DNA from: Candidatus Marinacidobacterales bacterium
Lineage (GTDB): Bacteria > Acidobacteriota > Vicinamibacteria > Marinacidobacterales > DATDRI01
Direction: 5' to 3'
Length of the DNA: 64,000 bases
NCBI GenBank assembly: GCA_965219415.1
Contig: CBDCNP010000002.1
Span: 384,001 to 448,000 of the forward strand
The notes beneath the pieces were generated by a model. The model was not told the DNA's origin and did not search any database. It was given only the letters and a program-made list of their open reading frames with translations. Each line of letters begins with the position of its first letter. Positions within the stretch are counted from its first letter, which is position 1. This document shows positions 1 to 11,760 of the stretch, piece by piece. The position numbers and the translations under genes are program-made.

Positions 1-1676
1 TCAACGCTCGGAGCTCCGAGAGCTTCCCTTCCATCGCTATCGAAGAAGAGGGCGTCTTGGAGACGTTCGCCGCTGCACTTCGTCTCACGATGACCGAGCT
101 TTCGACTCGATACAAGATCGGCGAGGACGTCCGTGGACCGCGCGCGGCGCGCGAATGGGCGGAGCGCGCCATGAAAGCGACCTTCAAGATGGCGCAACCG
201 GCTCCAAAAGAAGAACCCGTACCCGCCCCCCCGAGGCTGGTGCTTCGTCAACGGCGGATCCAGCGTCAGCGACGGAACCACCACCCGCGACCGTGCTCCG
301 GGTGCGAACGCCCTCATCGCCTCGGACCAAGCTCGGGTCCGCCCCGGCGGATCCGCCATCCACAGAGTCACCCGCGCCGTCCGCATCAGCCGAAGCTCAG
401 GATCCCATGGCAGCCCAGGCACTCGTCAACAGCTACGCCGAGGCGGCAGCCGGACTCACCGACCATTTGGGCCGACTCCGCGAGGAGAGGGACGAGGCGA
501 ACCGAAGGCTGGAAGAACTCTATGCCGTGGCCGACATTGGGCGCAGCCTACTTCATGCCTCGCGCGATCGAGCCAAAGTGTTGCTGGAGGGCGTGGTGAA
601 GAAGATGTCGGAAATCTTCCGCACTTCGCAGGCTTCGCTATCCCTCATGCGACCGGACGGCGAGTTGGAGGTCGTCGTTCACCAAGGGATCGAAGACGAT
701 CCTATTGTCTACGGAACTTCGTCCGAAGGTCATTCACTCGGCCCATCACTTCTGGAAGCTGGACAACTTCGCCTCGAGCTGCGCGGAGCGGCCGGTCCCC
801 TCGGTGAAGCGATCGAGCGAGTCGGTTCGCAGTGTGTCGCGGTCCTGGTGCTTCCACTCCAGACACCGGCTCGCCCCATCGGGATGCTGGTTTTCTATCT
901 CCCCGAGGAAGCGTCGATCCCGACCGAGTTCGAAATGGAGCACCTCGAGCGCTTGGCGCTCGGGCTGACGTTGACGCTGGAGGTCGCCTCCGAGGCAGTC
1001 TCGACCGACCGTTTGGAAACGATGACCAAAGCGGTGCTCGCCGGACAGCTTGCGCAGCATGTTTTTCGCTCCGCAGACGCGCCCATCGACCAAATCGTGT
1101 CCGCCCTTTATCGACTTCGCTCGCGCCCCGGTTCACCGGCATGGATCACCGACGGCCTCGGCCAGATGGAAGACACGATCTTCCAGCTCCAGAAATTGAG
1201 TCGGGGGGTGGCGGCATTCGGGGACGACGAGCTCCCTCCCGCCGACCGCGTCTCCTTGGAGGAGCTCCTCGGCGAAATCGAGGCTGACTTTCGCGTGCCA
1301 TTGGCCGAGGCGGGGATCACCTTTCAAATCGAGAACAAGGCCGGCGGTGCTTTCATGAAAGCGGAGCCAGTCCTGCTCCGCGCCCTCGTCGGGGGATTGG
1401 TAGAGAACGCTCGCCGGGATCACATCCGGAGGCATGATACGGGTGATCGCACAATTGTCCGACCGAACCGTGCGGCTCGCCATTTTCCATAACGCCGGCG
1501 CGTTGGTTGCTAGGAGAGCTCCCGCGCAAGCCCTGTCATGGCCGTTCGAACGGCGTCTATCCGACATCAACCTGAAGCTGGTCGAAACTATGGTCTCCTA
1601 TTTTCAAGGCGAGCTGACGACCGAAACCCGAGAGAAGGTCGGTACGATGACGACGCTGGCGCTACAAAGCGAGTGA
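1..1676 (+). CDS. 5'-truncated multidomain protein: C-terminus of MglA-like small GTPase, Pro-rich linker, GAF domain, degenerate histidine-kinase/HATPase region; two apparent frameshifts (~230, ~1430)
   Basis: Frame from nt 3 reads NARSSESFPSIAIEEEGVLETFAAALRLTMTEL, matching the MglA C-terminal helix pattern. ORF 155..1492 has a GAF-like core (VLVLPLQTPARPIGMLVF) and an N-box (LVENA). ORF 1434..1676 supplies the HATPase-like end. Confidence 0.6.
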
Positions 1677-2846
1677 ACTAGGGGTCGGTCGAGGAAGTCG
1701 CGCGCGCCACCGATGCTCGGCCCGATCCCACCGCAAGACCTGAACCAGCCGGGACCATCCCCAAGCCATGACCTGGCACAATCGACGGAGATAAAACCAG
1801 CGAGTGGCACCGCCCGGAAACACTTCGCGCAGGACGTTGTGGCGAGGAAAAGTGAACTCCCACAAGTAGCCCAGCTTTCCGAGAGCCGAGGGGATCGAGA
1901 AAACCACCAAGAGCTCTCCCGTCGCCTCCGCAGCCCGCCTAGCCACGACCGCATCCACGAACTTGCATTCCATGCGATTCAGGCGCGGCAAAGAGACCCT
2001 TACTCCGGGTGGAATCTTCACCGAGAGCAGTTGCTCCATCGCCGAGACCGCATAGGCGACGGAACGCTGGGTCCCGGTTTTCTCGGCTTCGAGCAAGAGC
2101 TCTTCCCAGTCCAGCCGCCGGGAAACCAAGACTAAATCGACCAACCAGATGAGTCGGGAGAACGAGTGCTTCTGCGCGTGCACCGCGAGATGGAGAAACT
2201 GATGAGCGGGTGGCAGAGTCAGCAAGCTTTCGTCACCGGGATCCAAGGGCACCGCCTTGGCCCAGACCGCTTCGGCATCGAACCGAAACGCGAGAACCCG
2301 TCTGCGGATTCGAGACGCGTTGATGAGGTCGGTATGGAGGTCGAACATCACCGGCCCCTTCGTGAAAAGCGTCCCCGATGAGCCCGGGGAACGGAAGCCC
2401 CGCTGAAAGAGCGTATCCCGTACTCGGGGAAGGTCTATCTCTTTCACCAGGAGATCCAGGTCGCTCAAAGGGCGTAACCCCAGCTGGCCTCCGTAAGCGG
2501 TGGTGGTCAGCGCGTCGCCTTTGAGAAGAATGATCCGAAACCCTTCCTTCTGGAGAGCAGCACGAAGCGCAAGTAGCTCTGCGAAATGGCTTCCGTTGGA
2601 GACGAAAATCTCATGGAGCGCCTTGGAGAAAGGCTCCAAGGGAAGCTTCAAACCGTCGATTCTTGTGAGCTGCTCGAGCTGAAGCGCCAGCACACCGCTC
2701 ATGCCTTCTTGCCCCGCCAGCCCGAGCAGACCCGCCCAGTCCAAGGACGGACCGATGCATTCGAGAGCCTCCTCCTTCTCGGCGTTGCCGAGGAAGAGAC
2801 GCCCCGCGGCGAGGAGCAGGTCTAGCTCTGGGCTTCTAGCAACCAC
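1662..2846 (-). CDS. Nucleotidyltransferase family protein (NTP_transf_5-like, type found in lasso/RiPP clusters)
   Basis: LLKGDAL...RPLSDLDLLV, FDLH, HLAVHAQKH and RLIWLVDL motifs; overlaps the upstream RRE gene. Confidence 0.85.
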   Translation of the reverse strand: MVARSPELDLLLAAGRLFLGNAEKEEALECIGPSLDWAGLLGLAGQEGMSGVLALQLEQLTRIDGLKLPLEPFSKALHEIFVSNGSHFAELLALRAALQKEGFRIILLKGDALTTTAYGGQLGLRPLSDLDLLVKEIDLPRVRDTLFQRGFRSPGSSGTLFTKGPVMFDLHTDLINASRIRRRVLAFRFDAEAVWAKAVPLDPGDESLLTLPPAHQFLHLAVHAQKHSFSRLIWLVDLVLVSRRLDWEELLLEAEKTGTQRSVAYAVSAMEQLLSVKIPPGVRVSLPRLNRMECKFVDAVVARRAAEATGELLVVFSIPSALGKLGYLWEFTFPRHNVLREVFPGGATRWFYLRRLCQVMAWGWSRLVQVLRWDRAEHRWRARLPRPTPSSLAL

Positions 2847-3372
2847 AATTGTTGGCAGCCTGACCCGGATTCATGCAGATGCCGTTGCAGCATCGCCACG
2901 TCGGGGTGCAGTCTCCGCCCGGGTTCGCGCACGGTGTACAGTCGGCGAGACCGGAACAGTTAGAATTCGGAATGCAGCTCTGGGCGTGTGCCGGAGTGGG
3001 TGCAACGATCGAGCTCACCACGGGTAGCATTACCGAGGCCGCGAGGCCGACTTTCTTCAACCGACGAATGAAGTCACGCCGAGAGTACGCCTCGATGAAC
3101 GCTTCGTCTTCCAGCAAGCCGACGCGCGCGAGGCGGCCCAAGGCATAGCGCACGACCTCTCGGTCGGCAGGTTCGTCGAGCTCACTCGCCAAGATGCGGG
3201 CCAACTGACTGACGGTCTTCTTGCCATCGCTCCGGCGCCATACGATCGCGGCGGCACGATTGAGACGATGCGCTCGATGGTTTCTCAAGTCATAGACCAG
3301 AACTTCGTCGAGAAGGTTCTGCACCGCTAGATCCTTTTTCCTCCGACGAGGTTTGTCGCGTCCTCTGCGCAT
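2836..3372 (-). CDS. PqqD/RRE domain fused to twin-arginine-like leader and Cys-rich peptide
   Basis: N-terminal DEVLVYDL...HRLNRAAAIVWRRSDG...LARVGLLE (PqqD fold), then SRRDFIRR, a hydrophobic segment, APTPAHA|QS and 10 Cys in the last 47 aa. Confidence 0.85.
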   Translation of the reverse strand: MRRGRDKPRRRKKDLAVQNLLDEVLVYDLRNHRAHRLNRAAAIVWRRSDGKKTVSQLARILASELDEPADREVVRYALGRLARVGLLEDEAFIEAYSRRDFIRRLKKVGLAASVMLPVVSSIVAPTPAHAQSCIPNSNCSGLADCTPCANPGGDCTPTWRCCNGICMNPGQAANNCGC

Positions 3373-3389
3373 GTTCGCTCCTTGCCAAA

Positions 3390-4226
3390 CTAGGCGGCGC
3401 TATCGAACTCGGCCAGCATTTTCTCCAGTACCTCATCCACTTCGCCTCGCGCACCGATCAAGACCGGCGCCCGACGGACGGCGCGCTTCAACATCTCGAG
3501 CGCCCGTTGAGGCGCCAGGCGGGCCGAGGCGGTGTTGGCCAACAGCGCGAGCGCCGCTTGACCGGGAGATAGCGTCTGCGGACTCCAACTTGCTCCCGGC
3601 TTGTACTCACTCACAATGACCAGCCCGACGGGTAGCGGTGGCCCCCCGGCCGTCACACCCAGTTCCTCAACCAACCCAGATATGGAAGGCCTGTCCCCCT
3701 CGAGGGTCCCAGTTGGGTGGGGAAAAGCGTGTACGCGGCCGCGTGAATCGAAGACCGCATATTCGTGGGAGTAATACGTTGCGCCCGCCCTGACCAATCC
3801 GGCGACCAGAGTGCTCTTGCCGCTGAAGGTCTTGCCCGGCAAAACGATTGCCCGGCCGTGCCATCCGACCACCCCGGCGTGGACGAACACTCGTGTCTCC
3901 GAGGTTTCGGCAACAAAGAGCCGCATGTCCGACGCGAAAACCTGAAGTAGATCGTCGAGGTCCATCGTCCTCGAGATCCGTTCCGTATTGGCATAGAGAA
4001 GGTTGTACCAGCGGACCCGCTCGGGGGAGCCTGTTGCCTGGTTGGACCCCACCCGGAGCGAATACAAACGATCCACGACGCGGGATCTCGCCGGTTTCCA
4101 ACCAGGAGAGAGCAACGGCTCGAGACGCTCGAGCACTTCCGCTTGGTTGACGCGAATCCCTACACGAGTACCGTAGACTTGATAGGCGATCCCCGCTTCC
4201 CAACCCAACCGATCGAGCTCCTTCAT
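3390..4226 (-). CDS. HPr kinase-like P-loop protein (RiPP kinase type); probable start MKELDRLGW
   Basis: FVHAGVV, Walker A GKTFSGKST, YYSHEYAV and HAFP motifs; start chosen within ORF 3390..4361. Confidence 0.8.
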   Translation of the reverse strand: MKELDRLGWEAGIAYQVYGTRVGIRVNQAEVLERLEPLLSPGWKPARSRVVDRLYSLRVGSNQATGSPERVRWYNLLYANTERISRTMDLDDLLQVFASDMRLFVAETSETRVFVHAGVVGWHGRAIVLPGKTFSGKSTLVAGLVRAGATYYSHEYAVFDSRGRVHAFPHPTGTLEGDRPSISGLVEELGVTAGGPPLPVGLVIVSEYKPGASWSPQTLSPGQAALALLANTASARLAPQRALEMLKRAVRRAPVLIGARGEVDEVLEKMLAEFDSAA

Positions 4227-4510
4227 GGATGGCGAGCCACCGTCGAGCCGTGGCAGAAGCGAACGTGCCAAGCGATTCTCTCCCTGTTCGAGTTTAGACC
4301 CCGGCGCCTCGGAGACACAGTGTTCCCAGAGAGTCCGACGAAAACCCGTTGTGATGAACACTTAAATTTATCTGTTACTTGTATCAACAGGTTACCAAAA
4401 GTACTCGACCGAGGCAAGAACCGCCCACGCGCAGATCTCGTTTGCGCTAGCGACCGCCGCTATATAGCCTGGGCCGCACGAAAAAGGCGGTTTTACAGGA
4501 GTCAGGGGCA

Positions 4511-10074: not shown

Positions 10075-11644
10075 CTAGTTCAAATCGGAGAACGTGTTCT
10101 CGGCTTTTTCGATGAACGGCGGCCGCCAATTCGGGAACCGGTCTCGAAAAATATGGTCCCGTCCGTAATGCTCCTCCAAGAGACGTCCCTTGGCGGTCCC
10201 TCCGTTCCAGAGGTCGTACTCGGGGACCGCGTACCTCTCGAAGAAAGCGTTCAATCTCTCGTCGAGCGTCCCCACGACCTCTCGGTAGGCGGGATCGGCT
10301 GCTAGGTTGATGGTCTCGCCGGGATCGGCCTCCATATCAAAGAGAGTATCCGGCTCCTCTCGATCGAAACGCTTCATGTACTTCCACTTGGGCGTTCGGA
10401 TCACTCGGAGAGTGACGAACTCGAAGAAAGCGGCGTCCTCCCAGCCCATGTCTTCTCCACTTAGGAGCCCCGCATAGGTCTTCCCCGGCGTGTTCTCGAT
10501 CGTCACGTCACCCATCCCGAGATAGTCGAGGACCGTCGGGAAGAAATCGTATTGCCCGACGAGTCGATCGGTCTCGGCGCCGGCTGGAATACGCCCAGGA
10601 TGCCGAAAGATCATAGGGATCTGCATGTGGACGTTCAACACCGTAAAGGGAAACGACCAGGAGGTGTTCCCCCAGAAGCCATGCTGCCCGTATGAGGCCG
10701 CCTGATCGGAGGTGTAGATGACCAACGTATTGTCATCGAAGCCGTGCCGGCCCAGCGCCTCCATCACTCTGCCCACGCCATCATCCACCATGGTCGTCTC
10801 GGACGCGGTGTTGACGACCGCCGCTCTGTTCGTCAGCGCATCGATGGCCTTCGCCGCCGTCGTTCCTTCGTCGATCATCAAGTCCGAGGGTCCCCTGCCT
10901 CGCGCCCACCTCATCACGTAAGGATGGGGCGCCGACTCCCGGGCGAAGTCGGGCGTATGCGCCTCGTAATGGGCCGCGTGACGGGTTCGCGGTTCCATGT
11001 TCACGGTGGGTGGCAACATGTAGGGACCGTTGTAAGGAAAGATACAAGAAGAAAGGTCTGTCGTCGGTCTGGCGCGAAATGAAGTCGATTGCCTTATCGG
11101 TCCAGAAGTCGGTGAGATGATTCTTCACCGTGTACGCCTCGCCGTTGTCGATGACCGACTGGTCATAGAAAGTCGTGGTGTGGCCAGAGGGAAACGTCAC
11201 CCAATACTGGAAGCCGAGCTGCGGCTCGGCAGCCTCGCCTAGATGATACTTGCCGACGAGACCAGTGGTATAGCCGGCCTCGGACAAGGTCTGGGGCAAC
11301 GAGCGGAATTCCTCGACGGCCGACCAGCCGGAGACGCCGGTGACACCGGGGAGCGCTACGTGGATACCGGTCTGAGAAGGGATGAGTCCAGTTAGTAAAG
11401 TCGCACGTGTCGGAGAGCACACGCCGTTCACGGCGAAAGCGCGATTGAATCGAATTCCTTCCTCCGCCAGGCGATCGATGTTGGGGGTTTTGACCTGAGT
11501 ATTCCCATAGGTCCCGAGTAACGAATGACTCTGGTTGTCCGAGACGATGAGAAGCAGATTGGGGGGACGAGACGAGTCTTCCCCAGCGCAGCCGATGGCC
11601 CCAACCGCGATTGCAAGAGAGAGTACGTCTCGTATTCGTAGCAC
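10075..11644 (-). CDS. Formylglycine-dependent sulfatase, split by an apparent frameshift near 11035
   Basis: PNLLLIVSD, CSPTRA and GKYH in ORF 10781..11677; YTSDQ and LFDMEADPGE in ORF 10075..11019. Confidence 0.88.
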
Positions 11645-11760
11645 TTGAGCGCTTCCTTGGCATTCATGCGCGACCACCGTAATGGTCGCGCATGAGCGCG
11701 CAGAATACTCGCCAGCCTCTACGGTAGCAAGTTGGTTTGGAGGAAGGCGCTCGAACAGAT

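Follow-up and report, generated by a model that had tools for sequence, protein, structure and literature searches.

Lasso peptide clusters in which the product is phosphorylated are the closest described systems. In the sections of two sources used here, such clusters carry an accessory set made up of an RRE, an HPr-kinase homologue and a nucleotidyltransferase (PMC8498205, PMC10368454). The lasso kinases reviewed in the first of these sections act on a C-terminal serine, which is the acceptor in paeninodin, and pseudomycoidin, once phosphorylated, has hexoses added to it by the nucleotidyltransferase (PMC8498205). For the Bradymonas lasso pathway, the section of the second source reports that BsfB1, the RRE, strongly boosts the phosphorylation carried out by BsfK, an HPr-kinase-like enzyme (PMC10368454).

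We analysed a window of DNA from an acidobacterium, a whole stretch of 64,000 nt, that contains a kinase, a fusion protein and a nucleotidyltransferase gene, all on the minus strand. As with paeninodin PadeK, pseudomycoidin PsmK/PsmN and Bradymonas BsfK/BsfB1/BsfN, the locus combines genes for an RRE, a kinase and a nucleotidyltransferase. We think it somewhat probable (roughly 55%) that the trio is a cyclase-independent module for the maturation and export of a ribosomally made mini-protein. Its features are:

3390..4226, minus strand: kinase, 278 aa counted from the ATG at 4226
3378..3383, minus strand: Shine-Dalgarno sequence AAGGAG of the fusion gene, 5 nt ahead of the ATG, by direct reading of the sequence
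2836..3372, minus strand: fusion protein, 178 aa, ATG start, with RRE, twin-arginine-type signal and Cys-rich tail
3103..3351, minus strand: PqqD/RRE domain of the fusion (PF05402), residues about 8-90
2983..3084, minus strand: twin-arginine-type signal of the fusion, residues 97-130, with SRRDFIRRL, the hydrophobic stretch VGLAASVMLPVVSSIVAP and TPAHA, which holds an AxA motif
2839..2982, minus strand: variable Cys-rich tail of the fusion, residues 131-178, 48 aa including 10 Cys and presumed to be the mature peptide
1662..2846, minus strand: nucleotidyltransferase PF14907 (NTP_transf_5), 394 aa, GTG start

The ORF calls confirmed the tight linkage of the three genes claimed in the preliminary description. 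Between the end of the kinase stop at 3390 and the fusion's start codon, an ATG at 3372, there is a 17-nt gap, while the fusion stop (2836-2838) falls inside the GTG-started nucleotidyltransferase ORF, giving an 11-nt overlap. Read at its longest, the kinase ORF spans 3390-4361, being open upstream of the ATG to a GTG at 4361. Because the Met starts of four kinase homologues align with the ATG at 4226, we take this as the better start, in agreement with the end coordinate given earlier. Promoter and terminator scans of the locus gave no signal above shuffled expectation and thus do not define the limits of an operon. Kinase, fusion and nucleotidyltransferase genes were contiguous in 12 of the loci examined, among them the window and L055, which is its closest public relative, and this shared order, which spans several families, confirms that the neighbourhood of the trio is not due to chance. 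With thresholds of E<=1e-25 for the full-length fusion and E<=1e-15 for the kinase, 31 of 401 Acidobacteriota genomes carried the fusion, all of them among the 37 kinase-bearing genomes, and 0 of the 364 kinase-less genomes had a full-length fusion; these counts come from related genomes in which one family (f41) is dominant and are not independent. Kinase and fusion co-occur strictly, even if unlinked. The shuffled-level scans would suit three functionally unrelated genes that are neighbours by chance, but the gap, the overlap, the repeated order and the strict co-occurrence speak against such a reading; we reject it as contradicted by the comparative data and give it almost no credence.

The fusion family comprises 2302 clusters at 50% identity with E<=1e-30. 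The three-gene design is common in metagenomes, yet we found no description of it. Fusion matches numbered from 1 to 6 per genome, some in tandem (triple tandems in L035 and L036), and 16 of 20 genomes gave a single kinase match. In three genomes (L056, L057 and L059) the kinase adjoins the nucleotidyltransferase with no fusion gene between them and fusion genes lie elsewhere, which suggests that one enzyme set serves several substrates.

The preliminary description had assigned the proteins to the PqqD, NTP_transf_5 and HPrK families. Profile searches bore this out for PqqD and PF14907, both above cut-off. For the kinase, the Pfam search assigned no family, and the NCBIfam model TIGR04352 (HprK-related kinase A; E 2.2e-12) matched only residues 135-215, with 46.7 bits against a cut-off of 200. 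TIGR04352 and the PqqD peptide chaperone model TIGR04353 belong to HPr-rel-A, a catalogued cassette with, to our knowledge, no assigned function. Although the two models rank first or close to first among the NCBIfam matches here, both window proteins stay far under the cut-offs (18.7 bits against 35 for the fusion), and unlike the 74-position TIGR04353 model, the PqqD protein of the window has a signal and a tail. Among 28 fusion homologues, 19 matched TIGR04353 at E<=0.1 (best 1.5e-6). The kinase sequence contains the Walker A motif GKTFSGKST, and G131, G136, K137, H116, S153 and E155 are invariant in 18 sequences. A Foldseek search with the AF2 model (pLDDT 87.6) returned 21 matches with E<=0.001, including PEPCK (1j3b_B, E 8.9e-5) and HprK/P (1kkl_A, E 6.9e-4, target-normalised TM 0.54). 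By its Walker A loop and its modelled fold, the protein is an HprK/PEPCK-fold P-loop kinase.

The fusion, for which we found 51 homologues of similar length, was modelled by AF2 with a mean pLDDT of 85.3. PF05402 (PqqD) matches residues 23-86 with 31.2 bits (cut-off 23.4), and the two top fold matches of this RRE are lasso B1 proteins solved with leader peptides: 6jx3_B (VIA-align Z 9.1, rmsd 2.4 over 83 residues) and TbiB1 5v1u_A (Z 8.7). In this the locus resembles the lasso set. Tat substrates carry the motif S/T-R-R-x-F-L-K, followed by a hydrophobic stretch and AxA. The signal of the fusion recalls theirs in its S-R-R-x-F, its weakly hydrophobic stretch and its final AxA; R98, R99 and P125 are invariant in 28 sequences, an RR-led signal is present in 33 of 36 locus copies, and a conserved P-x-P-A-x-A motif closes the hydrophobic segment. 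TatC (PF00902) is found in the genome of the window with 231.6 bits, on contig C1. The description of this protein as an RRE-Tat-Cys fusion holds for its architecture, which is real and conserved in relatives, but less well for the Tat assignment. The twin-arginine model TIGR01409 scored 14.2 bits on residues 97-130, narrowly missing its cut-off of 16.7, and matched only 4 of 28 family members at E<=0.1. Moreover, the signal is internal: it begins at residue 97, after a folded domain of 96 residues, and this is unusual for Tat substrates, whose signal is N-terminal.

Such a layout invites another interpretation. Many single-pass regulators consist of a cytoplasmic domain of about 95 aa, a single hydrophobic segment and a small ectodomain that varies. 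The fusion, which matches this layout, could be a single-pass membrane adaptor or sensor and not a substrate, in which case the signal would be an uncleaved anchor, the Cys-rich part would lie outside, and the cytoplasmic RRE/winged-helix domain would bring the kinase to the membrane for signalling or for other clients. The RRE fold is a winged helix, and DNA-binding domains of the ToxR, CadC and OmpR type were matched at Z 4.2-5.1; the peptide-binding lasso B1 proteins, however, rank well above them. The P-x-P-A-x-A motif after the hydrophobic segment is typical of a cleaved signal, and AF2 models that segment without a helix, drawing its VSSIV as a strand. We consider an adaptor or sensor unlikely, also in view of the tail.

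Over 630 pairs, mean identity was 42.8% in the N-domain, 42.1% in the signal and 26.2% in the tail. The same was seen in eight pairs of tandem paralogues, with identities of 43-85%, 45-96% and 25-44%, respectively. These comparisons support the view that the tail behaves as a variable core after a conserved leader, and a hypervariable ectodomain encoded by tandem multi-copy genes would fit products better than sensors. Of 84 family tails, 77 have an even number of Cys other than zero, and 73 have 6, 8 or 10; in 62 of the 84, S or T stands directly ahead of the first Cys. The tail of the window's fusion has a pLDDT of 80-92 in the AF2 model. Several relatives' tails share the spacing C-x6-C-x6-CC-x3-C-x5-C, which we take to be knottin-like, while the window's tail has 10 Cys. 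In knottin (cystine-knot) mini-proteins, six Cys follow the pattern C-C-CC-C-C and the disulfides form a knot. Unlike lasso kinase acceptors, with their C-terminal Ser, the tails end differently across the family, the window's in Cys and many others in residues other than Ser.

A complex model of kinase and fusion gave a score of 0.75, compared with 0.23 for the best of three controls. The docking mark was attained by 58 of 80 solved complexes and by 2 of 110 mismatched pairs, counts that are only roughly valid for this calibration because our own alignments were used. At least 65% of contacts agreed between runs, with a partner pLDDT of at least 77. The predicted interface pairs kinase residues 103-107 and 220-251 with fusion residues 16-38 and 120-129, which correspond to the RRE sheet and the end of the signal. 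It includes or adjoins the invariant fusion residues E23, Y27, A34 and P125, and the invariant W214 and P216 of the kinase lie just ahead of it. Neither the kinase P-loop nor the fusion tail takes part, so the model lends no support to a catalytic geometry; like the varied tail ends, this weakens the earlier idea that the enzymes act on the tail. A predicted contact through the RRE and a membrane-proximal segment, but not the tail, would also suit a membrane adaptor. The model supports binding between kinase and fusion without showing it.

The trio could also be the tailoring half of an ordinary lasso pathway, with the cyclase, the B2 peptidase and a short precursor encoded elsewhere in the genome. 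An RRE, an HPr-kinase homologue and a nucleotidyltransferase are, after all, the accessory set of phosphorylated lasso clusters in the sections cited (PMC8498205, PMC10368454). Against this, the 96% complete genome of the window has no Transglut_core3 (PF13471, B2) match above cut-off, the best reaching 22 bits against 26 on contig C1. A search for an orphan lasso cyclase, as suggested earlier, returned a single PF00733 (Asn_synthase) match of 354 bits, like an ordinary AsnB and on another contig (C1). These whole-genome searches agree with the earlier remark that the window holds no lasso cyclase or B2 peptidase. B2-type peptidases above cut-off were found in 7 of 20 module-bearing genomes, all on another contig or more than 1 Mb away, and two of the genomes with the module (G137 and G362) lack any B2 match. 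Both are among three relatives whose nearest PF00733 genes lie 17-24 kb from the module, with at least 296 bits. No lasso cyclase or B2 peptidase was seen near any homologous trio examined, which upholds the idea of a conserved cassette without a cyclase and runs counter to the refuting case named earlier, homologous trios accompanied by a cyclase and a separate precursor. We therefore regard a split lasso pathway as highly improbable. The module differs from the lasso set in having no lasso cyclase, B2 peptidase or short Gly1/Asp-Glu precursor, in an RRE that is fused to the presumed substrate and is not a separate protein, in a leader that contains an export-type signal, and in a core that is a Cys-rich mini-protein of 27-50 aa.

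ORFs within 12 kb of the trio encode an SDR, a PF04199 'putative cyclase', a beta-lactamase-family protein, a rhomboid, an amidohydrolase and a sulfatase. The PF04199 protein is not a lasso cyclase. No ABC exporter was found among these ORFs, and a crude scan for signature motifs across the 64 kb turned up a single weak match, in a frame of 145 aa. Elsewhere, an ORF of at least 900 aa flanks 13 of 32 fusion modules, compared with 35 of 448 among the background ORFs of these loci; these giant neighbours are secreted proteins with a DUF4214 or Peptidase_C25 domain at the C-terminus. The trio of one genus lies within a block of sugar-transfer/epimerase-like genes, as read by eye from the sequences.

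The third gene matches PF14907 over residues 34-274 (E 6.1e-40, 137.8 bits, gathering score 31.2) and contains the Asp motif LSDLDLL, read by eye. The lasso 'N' proteins PsmN and BsfN may be members of the same family. PF14907 was likewise found for the third gene of the relatives' trio in all three loci scanned. It is nevertheless less tightly linked to the module and occurs in other contexts too: some kinase-fusion pairs (L038, L047) have no nucleotidyltransferase among the adjoining called genes, and a second copy in the window's genome adjoins a large multi-pass membrane protein.

TorD, DmsD and NapD are signal-binding Tat proofreading chaperones. The fusion recalls such chaperone-signal pairs in that a peptide-binding domain is predicted on the end of the signal; it differs in that the signal is internal, the 'chaperone' acts in cis and the curated Tat model is not reached. 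The RRE might accordingly be a cis export chaperone only, masking the signal until the peptide is ready, while the enzymes act elsewhere, for example on the giant DUF4214/C25 surface proteins or on a sugar or lipid carrier. The excess of such neighbours, their C-terminal domains, the sugar-gene block of the one genus and the occurrence of PF14907 outside the module are in line with this. However, giant and sugar genes are absent within 12 kb of the window's own trio, the strict co-occurrence of kinase and fusion extends to unlinked genes, and docking between the two is predicted by a model that passed its controls. We hold a chaperone-only role to be quite unlikely, less plausible than an adaptor or sensor.

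A maturation and export module would have parallels among large-leader or enzyme-fused RiPP precursors, such as those with NHLP and Nif11 leaders and the borosins, in which the core is fused to a methyltransferase. As in these, a folded domain is followed by a short variable core in one chain, and several precursor genes can share one enzyme set. In contrast to them, it is the recognition element that is fused here, not an enzyme or an enzyme-derived leader, and an export-type signal stands between domain and core.

The chemical steps, export route and cleavage that we infer for this module would be as follows. The fusion would be the precursor, with a two-part leader (lasso-B1-type RRE and twin-arginine-type signal with AxA) and the hypervariable tail as core. 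In the cytoplasm, the RRE would hold, in cis, the final part of the signal on the same chain (residues about 119-129) and recruit the single-copy HprK-like kinase through the conserved C-terminal subdomain of the latter. The kinase would then phosphorylate a Ser or Thr of the pre-protein, candidate acceptors being the conserved S/T in the hydrophobic stretch of the signal (S121) and the S/T before the first Cys (S132). Given the lasso precedent, in which hexoses are added to a phosphorylated peptide, the PF14907 nucleotidyltransferase would decorate that phosphate or a neighbouring residue. The chain would next be exported, probably via Tat, with the signal cut after AHA, and its Cys would pair into disulfides to give a secreted, compact, possibly modified peptide. 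Overall, the earlier interpretation of the trio as a whole is partly supported. The peptide is probably exported, and kinase and nucleotidyltransferase probably modify it. We hypothesize that the module represents an uncharacterised RiPP class.

The trio consists of three minus-strand reading frames spanning 1662–4361, with the following features:

3390–4361, minus strand: kinase ORF call in its longest reading, from a GTG at 4361, with an ATG at 4226
3378–3383, minus strand: Shine-Dalgarno sequence AAGGAG before the fusion gene, read from the sequence
2836–3372, minus strand: fusion gene, 178 aa (RRE domain of the PqqD type at about 8–90, twin-arginine-type signal at 97–130, Cys-rich tail at 131–178)
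1662–2846, minus strand: nucleotidyltransferase gene (PF14907)

The kinase stop ends at 3390 and the fusion ATG lies at 3372, leaving a gap of 17 nt, while the fusion stop (2836–2838) lies inside the nucleotidyltransferase ORF (GTG start at 2846), an overlap of 11 nt. Kinase homologues in four related loci (L039, L040, L051 and L058) begin at a methionine aligned with the ATG at 4226, in agreement with the kinase end given in the preliminary description. A separate short precursor was considered and rejected: the sole small upstream ORF (4223–4417, 64 aa) is unsupported and overlaps the upstream open frame of the kinase. An internal start yielding a free signal peptide was likewise rejected, as the family as a whole keeps the fused ORF, which here has no methionine between residues 1 and 115. 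Promoter and terminator scans did no better than shuffles (1 versus 0.6, and 4 versus 3.7).

The genes flanking the trio are unrelated to it. On one side lies an apparently frame-shifted sensor kinase, converging; on the other is a divergent SDR and, beyond it, genes for a PF04199 protein, a beta-lactamase-family protein, a rhomboid, an amidohydrolase and a sulfatase. Compared with a 724-aa orthologue in locus L055, the sensor-kinase-like gene (3–1676, plus strand) falls into three reading frames, switching near 233–275 and 1407–1414; either the gene has become a pseudogene or the assembly is wrong here. The sulfatase (10075–11677, minus strand) is split into two overlapping ORFs, an N-terminal part with PF00884 (10781–11677) and a C-terminal part with SGSH_C (10075–11019); with two apparent frameshifts inside 12 kb, the assembly may contain indel errors. 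The window covers C3:384001–448000 of a genome (G000; 8.05 Mb, 3 contigs) that is 96% complete with 8.5% contamination. A single-protein genome search returned one close public relative, L055, from a MAG labelled Candidatus Marinacidobacterales; its fusion protein is 77% identical, and the same trio lies between the same flanking genes as in the window. This relative places the genome in the phylum Acidobacteriota.

The fusion protein matches PqqD at residues 23–86 (Pfam, 31.2 bits, cut-off 23.4), and scores 18.7 bits against TIGR04353 (NCBIfam, cut-off 35). Fifty-one database proteins match it at E ≤ 1e-3, with lengths of 100–228 aa, mostly 160–195 aa. Positions that never vary among 28 aligned sequences include P8, R11, E23, Y27, D28, A34, L37, G50, L81 and L86, together with R98, R99 and P125. 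Behind the PqqD domain comes the consensus SRRxxxRRLxxxGLAAxxALPVVSSIVAPTPAHA, and after it a Cys-rich stretch with hardly any conserved column. Searching 1.84 billion representatives with the fusion profile yielded 11192 proteins at E ≤ 1e-3, 6190 at 1e-10 and 2302 at 1e-30, the last figure counting clusters at 50% identity. The best 150 matches are all 157–274 aa long and match in one stretch each, starting within the first seven profile positions and extending at least to position 141 of 182. From these counts and single-stretch matches it follows that the fused architecture belongs to a large family and is not a local accident.

Structure prediction with the alignment (AF2, mean pLDDT 85.3) gave an N-domain of three strands and three helices, with a helix across the RR motif, and a tail that forms a small confident domain (pLDDT 80–92). 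With VIA-align, lasso B1 proteins, the RRE proteins of lasso pathways, came out on top (6jx3_B, Z 9.1, rmsd 2.4 over 83 residues; 5v1u_A, Z 8.7), followed by other RRE domains and then winged-helix regulators at about Z 5. Foldseek placed TbiB1–leader complexes first, with no match at E ≤ 0.001, and a profile search of solved structures returned only weak PqqD matches (E 0.016). Residues 97–130 reach 14.2 bits against the NCBIfam Tat signal model (cut-off 16.7). The SRRDF motif, mild hydrophobic stretch and AHA would fit Tat, and TatC is present in the genome. The fusion might instead be a membrane-anchored adaptor or sensor, a reading that we regard as unlikely; in the model, residues 119–123 (VSSIV) form a strand and not a membrane-type helix.

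An AxA-site heuristic parsed 84 tails, namely 33 of the 36 copies from the loci and window (three locus copies remained unparsed) and all 51 database proteins, the window and L055 each being counted twice. An even, non-zero number of cysteines was found in 77/84: 6 in 31 tails, 8 in 10 and 10 in 32, with 2, 4, 12 and 14 in one tail each. Six tails hold an odd number, several of which look truncated or frame-shifted (e.g. database proteins P0009, P0028 and P0041), and one holds none. The even numbers would be compatible with fully paired disulfides outside the cytoplasm. Serine or threonine immediately precedes the first cysteine in 62 of the 84. Several relatives share the spacing C-x6-C-x6-CC-x3-C-x5-C, which may be cystine-knot-like; fold searches with the fusion model had their matches taken up by the RRE domain. 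Over 630 fusion pairs, mean identity is 42.8% in the N-domain, 42.1% in the signal and 26.2% in the tail, and eight tandem-paralogue pairs show 43–85%, 45–96% and 25–44%, respectively. Judged from sequence, this gradient is a conserved-leader, variable-core pattern.

Profile searches matched PqqD and PF14907 (the latter at E 6.1e-40 in Pfam); the kinase scored 46.7 bits against TIGR04352 (NCBIfam, HprK-related kinase A), far below the cut-off of 200. The kinase carries a Walker A motif (GKTFSGKST), and residues invariant among 18 sequences include H116, G118, P130, G131, G136, K137, Y151, S153, E155, W214, P216 and R260. Its model (pLDDT 87.6, pTM 0.84) has 21 structure matches at E ≤ 0.001, among them the ATP-dependent PEPCK 1j3b_B (E 8.9e-5, TMq 0.49) and the HprK/P catalytic domain 1kkl_A (E 6.9e-4, TMt 0.54). 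Against solved structures, sequence searches drew a blank for the kinase, whose best match was a fumarase at E 0.53, and for the nucleotidyltransferase, in which an Asp motif, LSDLDLL, could be read by eye. Both enzymes have second copies in the genome (G000) outside the window. The second kinase copy (C3:541376–542128) is 45–50% identical in two matching pieces (residues 2–197 and 225–277) and isolated, with a 417-aa ORF, transposase-like by eye, about 0.8 kb away and no fusion or PF14907 gene close by. The second PF14907 gene (C3:1754029–1754967; its N-terminal part matches in another frame, C3:1753866–1754967) and the end of a 590-aa multi-pass membrane protein overlap; the ORF that comes next, of 477 aa, reads by eye like a response regulator with an ATPase domain, and no fusion gene lies close by.

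We ran the fusion profile over 401 Acidobacteriota genomes (the unpublished G152 is counted in tallies only). Some match occurred in 152, mostly to the PqqD domain alone. At E ≤ 1e-25 the fusion was found in 31 genomes, nearly always across most of the profile (the matches in G069 and G190 are partial or in pieces). The kinase profile (E ≤ 1e-15) matched 37 genomes, including all 31 with the fusion, and none of the 364 genomes without a kinase match had a fusion at E ≤ 1e-25. This association is strong but does not amount to a statistical test, the genomes being related, with family f41 dominating among the ten represented. The kinase has one match in 16/20 genomes; the two in G190 belong to a single gene, matched in pieces, and two loci are present in each of G000, G009 and G378.

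We clustered the ORFs of 35 further loci, which together with L055 make 36. Kinase, fusion and PF14907 gene are contiguous in 12 loci, counting the window (L039–L046, L048, L055, L063 and the window), PF14907 being confirmed by Pfam in L043, L039 and L037. The kinase adjoins the nucleotidyltransferase without the fusion in L056, L057 and L059, whose genomes hold fusion genes elsewhere, and fusion and nucleotidyltransferase occur without the kinase in L037, L060, L065 and L067. Other fusion genes stand alone or in tandem (three in L035, three in L036, two in L054, and others). That the trio is a chance adjacency seems to us scarcely credible. The three fusion genes of L035 (G386:C5) and of L036 (G346:C9) lie within 2–3 kb and have tails that are all different; those of L035 are directly adjacent to each other. 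In genus g92 of f41 (L041, L043–L046, L048, L063), the trio sits within a fixed gene block: polyprenyl-phosphate sugar-phosphate transferase-, glycosyltransferase- and epimerase-like ORFs flank it on one side, TsaB- and RimI-like genes on the opposite one (names by eye).

Complex prediction for kinase and fusion gave a score of 0.75, against 0.23 for the best of 3 controls, and supports binding of the modelled pair. The mark applied is reached by 58/80 solved complexes and 2/110 mismatched pairs, rough figures obtained with our own alignments. The runs share at least 65% of contacts, with partner pLDDT of at least 77. The predicted interface sets kinase C-terminal helices 220–251 and residues 103–107 against RRE strands 16–38 and signal residues 120–129 of the fusion, and takes in or adjoins residues invariant in both alignments. 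It involves neither the P-loop nor the tail and therefore says nothing on the acceptor site. We know of no solved kinase–RRE complex, so it seems unlikely that the predictor merely reproduced a known structure.

The preliminary description had proposed a cyclase-less operon, for which homologous trios accompanied by a cyclase and a separate precursor would be adverse; across 20 module-bearing genomes no set of B2 peptidase (PF13471) and cyclase (PF00733) lies near a module. The orphan-cyclase search that it suggested gave a single PF00733 match in the window's genome (354 bits, on a different contig), and PF13471 had no match above cut-off in the whole genome. B2-type peptidases above cut-off occur in 7/20 genomes, in no case on the same contig within 1 Mb of the module. 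Several adjoin a weakly scoring PF00733 gene, and such pairs look like true lasso clusters away from the module. The PF00733 genes closest to modules (G137, G362 and G221) lie 17–24 kb off and score at least 296 bits; G137 and G362 have no B2 match whatsoever. We thus consider it very improbable that the trio is part of a split lasso pathway.

Giant ORFs (900–2800 aa) often flank fusion genes (L038–L040, L049, L054, L060–L062, L064–L066, L069), not in the window. All six that were scanned end in a DUF4214 or Peptidase_C25 domain, and some also contain CarboxypepD_reg or cadherin-like repeats. Giant neighbours occur in 13/32 fusion-containing modules versus 35/448 background ORFs of the same loci, an excess that is only a lead because the loci are related. 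The fusion RRE could be an export chaperone while neighbouring products, for instance these giant proteins, are what the enzymes act on, a reading that we hold to be improbable.

Published work supplies a precedent for each enzymatic step. The HPr-kinase-like BsfK phosphorylates its precursor at core residue Ser3, a reaction that the RRE BsfB1 greatly enhances (PMC10368454); other lasso kinases place phosphate on the C-terminal Ser of the linear precursor, and in the pseudomycoidin pathway the nucleotidyltransferase puts one or two hexoses on the phosphorylated peptide (PMC8498205). By analogy, the RRE would offer the chain it is fused to for phosphorylation by the kinase, with extension of the phosphate by the nucleotidyltransferase. 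Since both steps require ATP or NTP-type donors, they would precede export, which suits post-translational transport, for instance by Tat. Cleavage by signal peptidase would then release the 48-aa tail, and its ten cysteines would pair. We give this whole sequence a probability of roughly 0.55. Its weakest links are the Tat assignment (the curated model is not reached and the position is internal), the acceptor residue and the looser linkage of the nucleotidyltransferase.

In its workings the module would correspond to the tailoring section of phosphorylated lasso pathways, but both defining lasso features are missing from it. It also resembles the NCBIfam HPr-rel-A cassette, yet its kinase and PqqD protein fall far below the curated cut-offs. 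The literature yielded no account of an RRE–signal–core fusion or a cyclase-free kinase–RRE–nucleotidyltransferase module (subscription journals and supplements lay outside the scope). We rate the module as probable RRE-guided peptide maturation, a known kind, with a new precursor design. More tentatively, and with the odds against it, it may represent a new class of ribosomal natural product, whose leader is a folded RRE plus a Tat signal and which is modified before export and released as a disulfide-knotted mini-protein. The RRE would grip its own signal peptide in cis and keep the pre-protein in the cytoplasm long enough for a dedicated kinase and nucleotidyltransferase to add a phospho-linked group, sugar or nucleotide. 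Export would come after, so that the design would include its own checkpoint ('modify before you export'), and the hypervariable sequence of the modified product would point to roles in competition or signalling.

If the proposed maturation is true, RRE-guided peptide modification would not be bound to the known RiPP core enzymes and could be wired straight to protein export through a precursor with its own recognition domain. A very large family of unannotated small proteins would gain a function, and so would the kinase and nucleotidyltransferase pair, for which we found no role described outside lasso clusters. The family would also open a new supply of peptides that are compact, disulfide-rich and possibly phospho- or glyco-decorated and, should it form a new class, would rank among the larger peptide families still unexplored (2302 clusters at 50% identity, E ≤ 1e-30).
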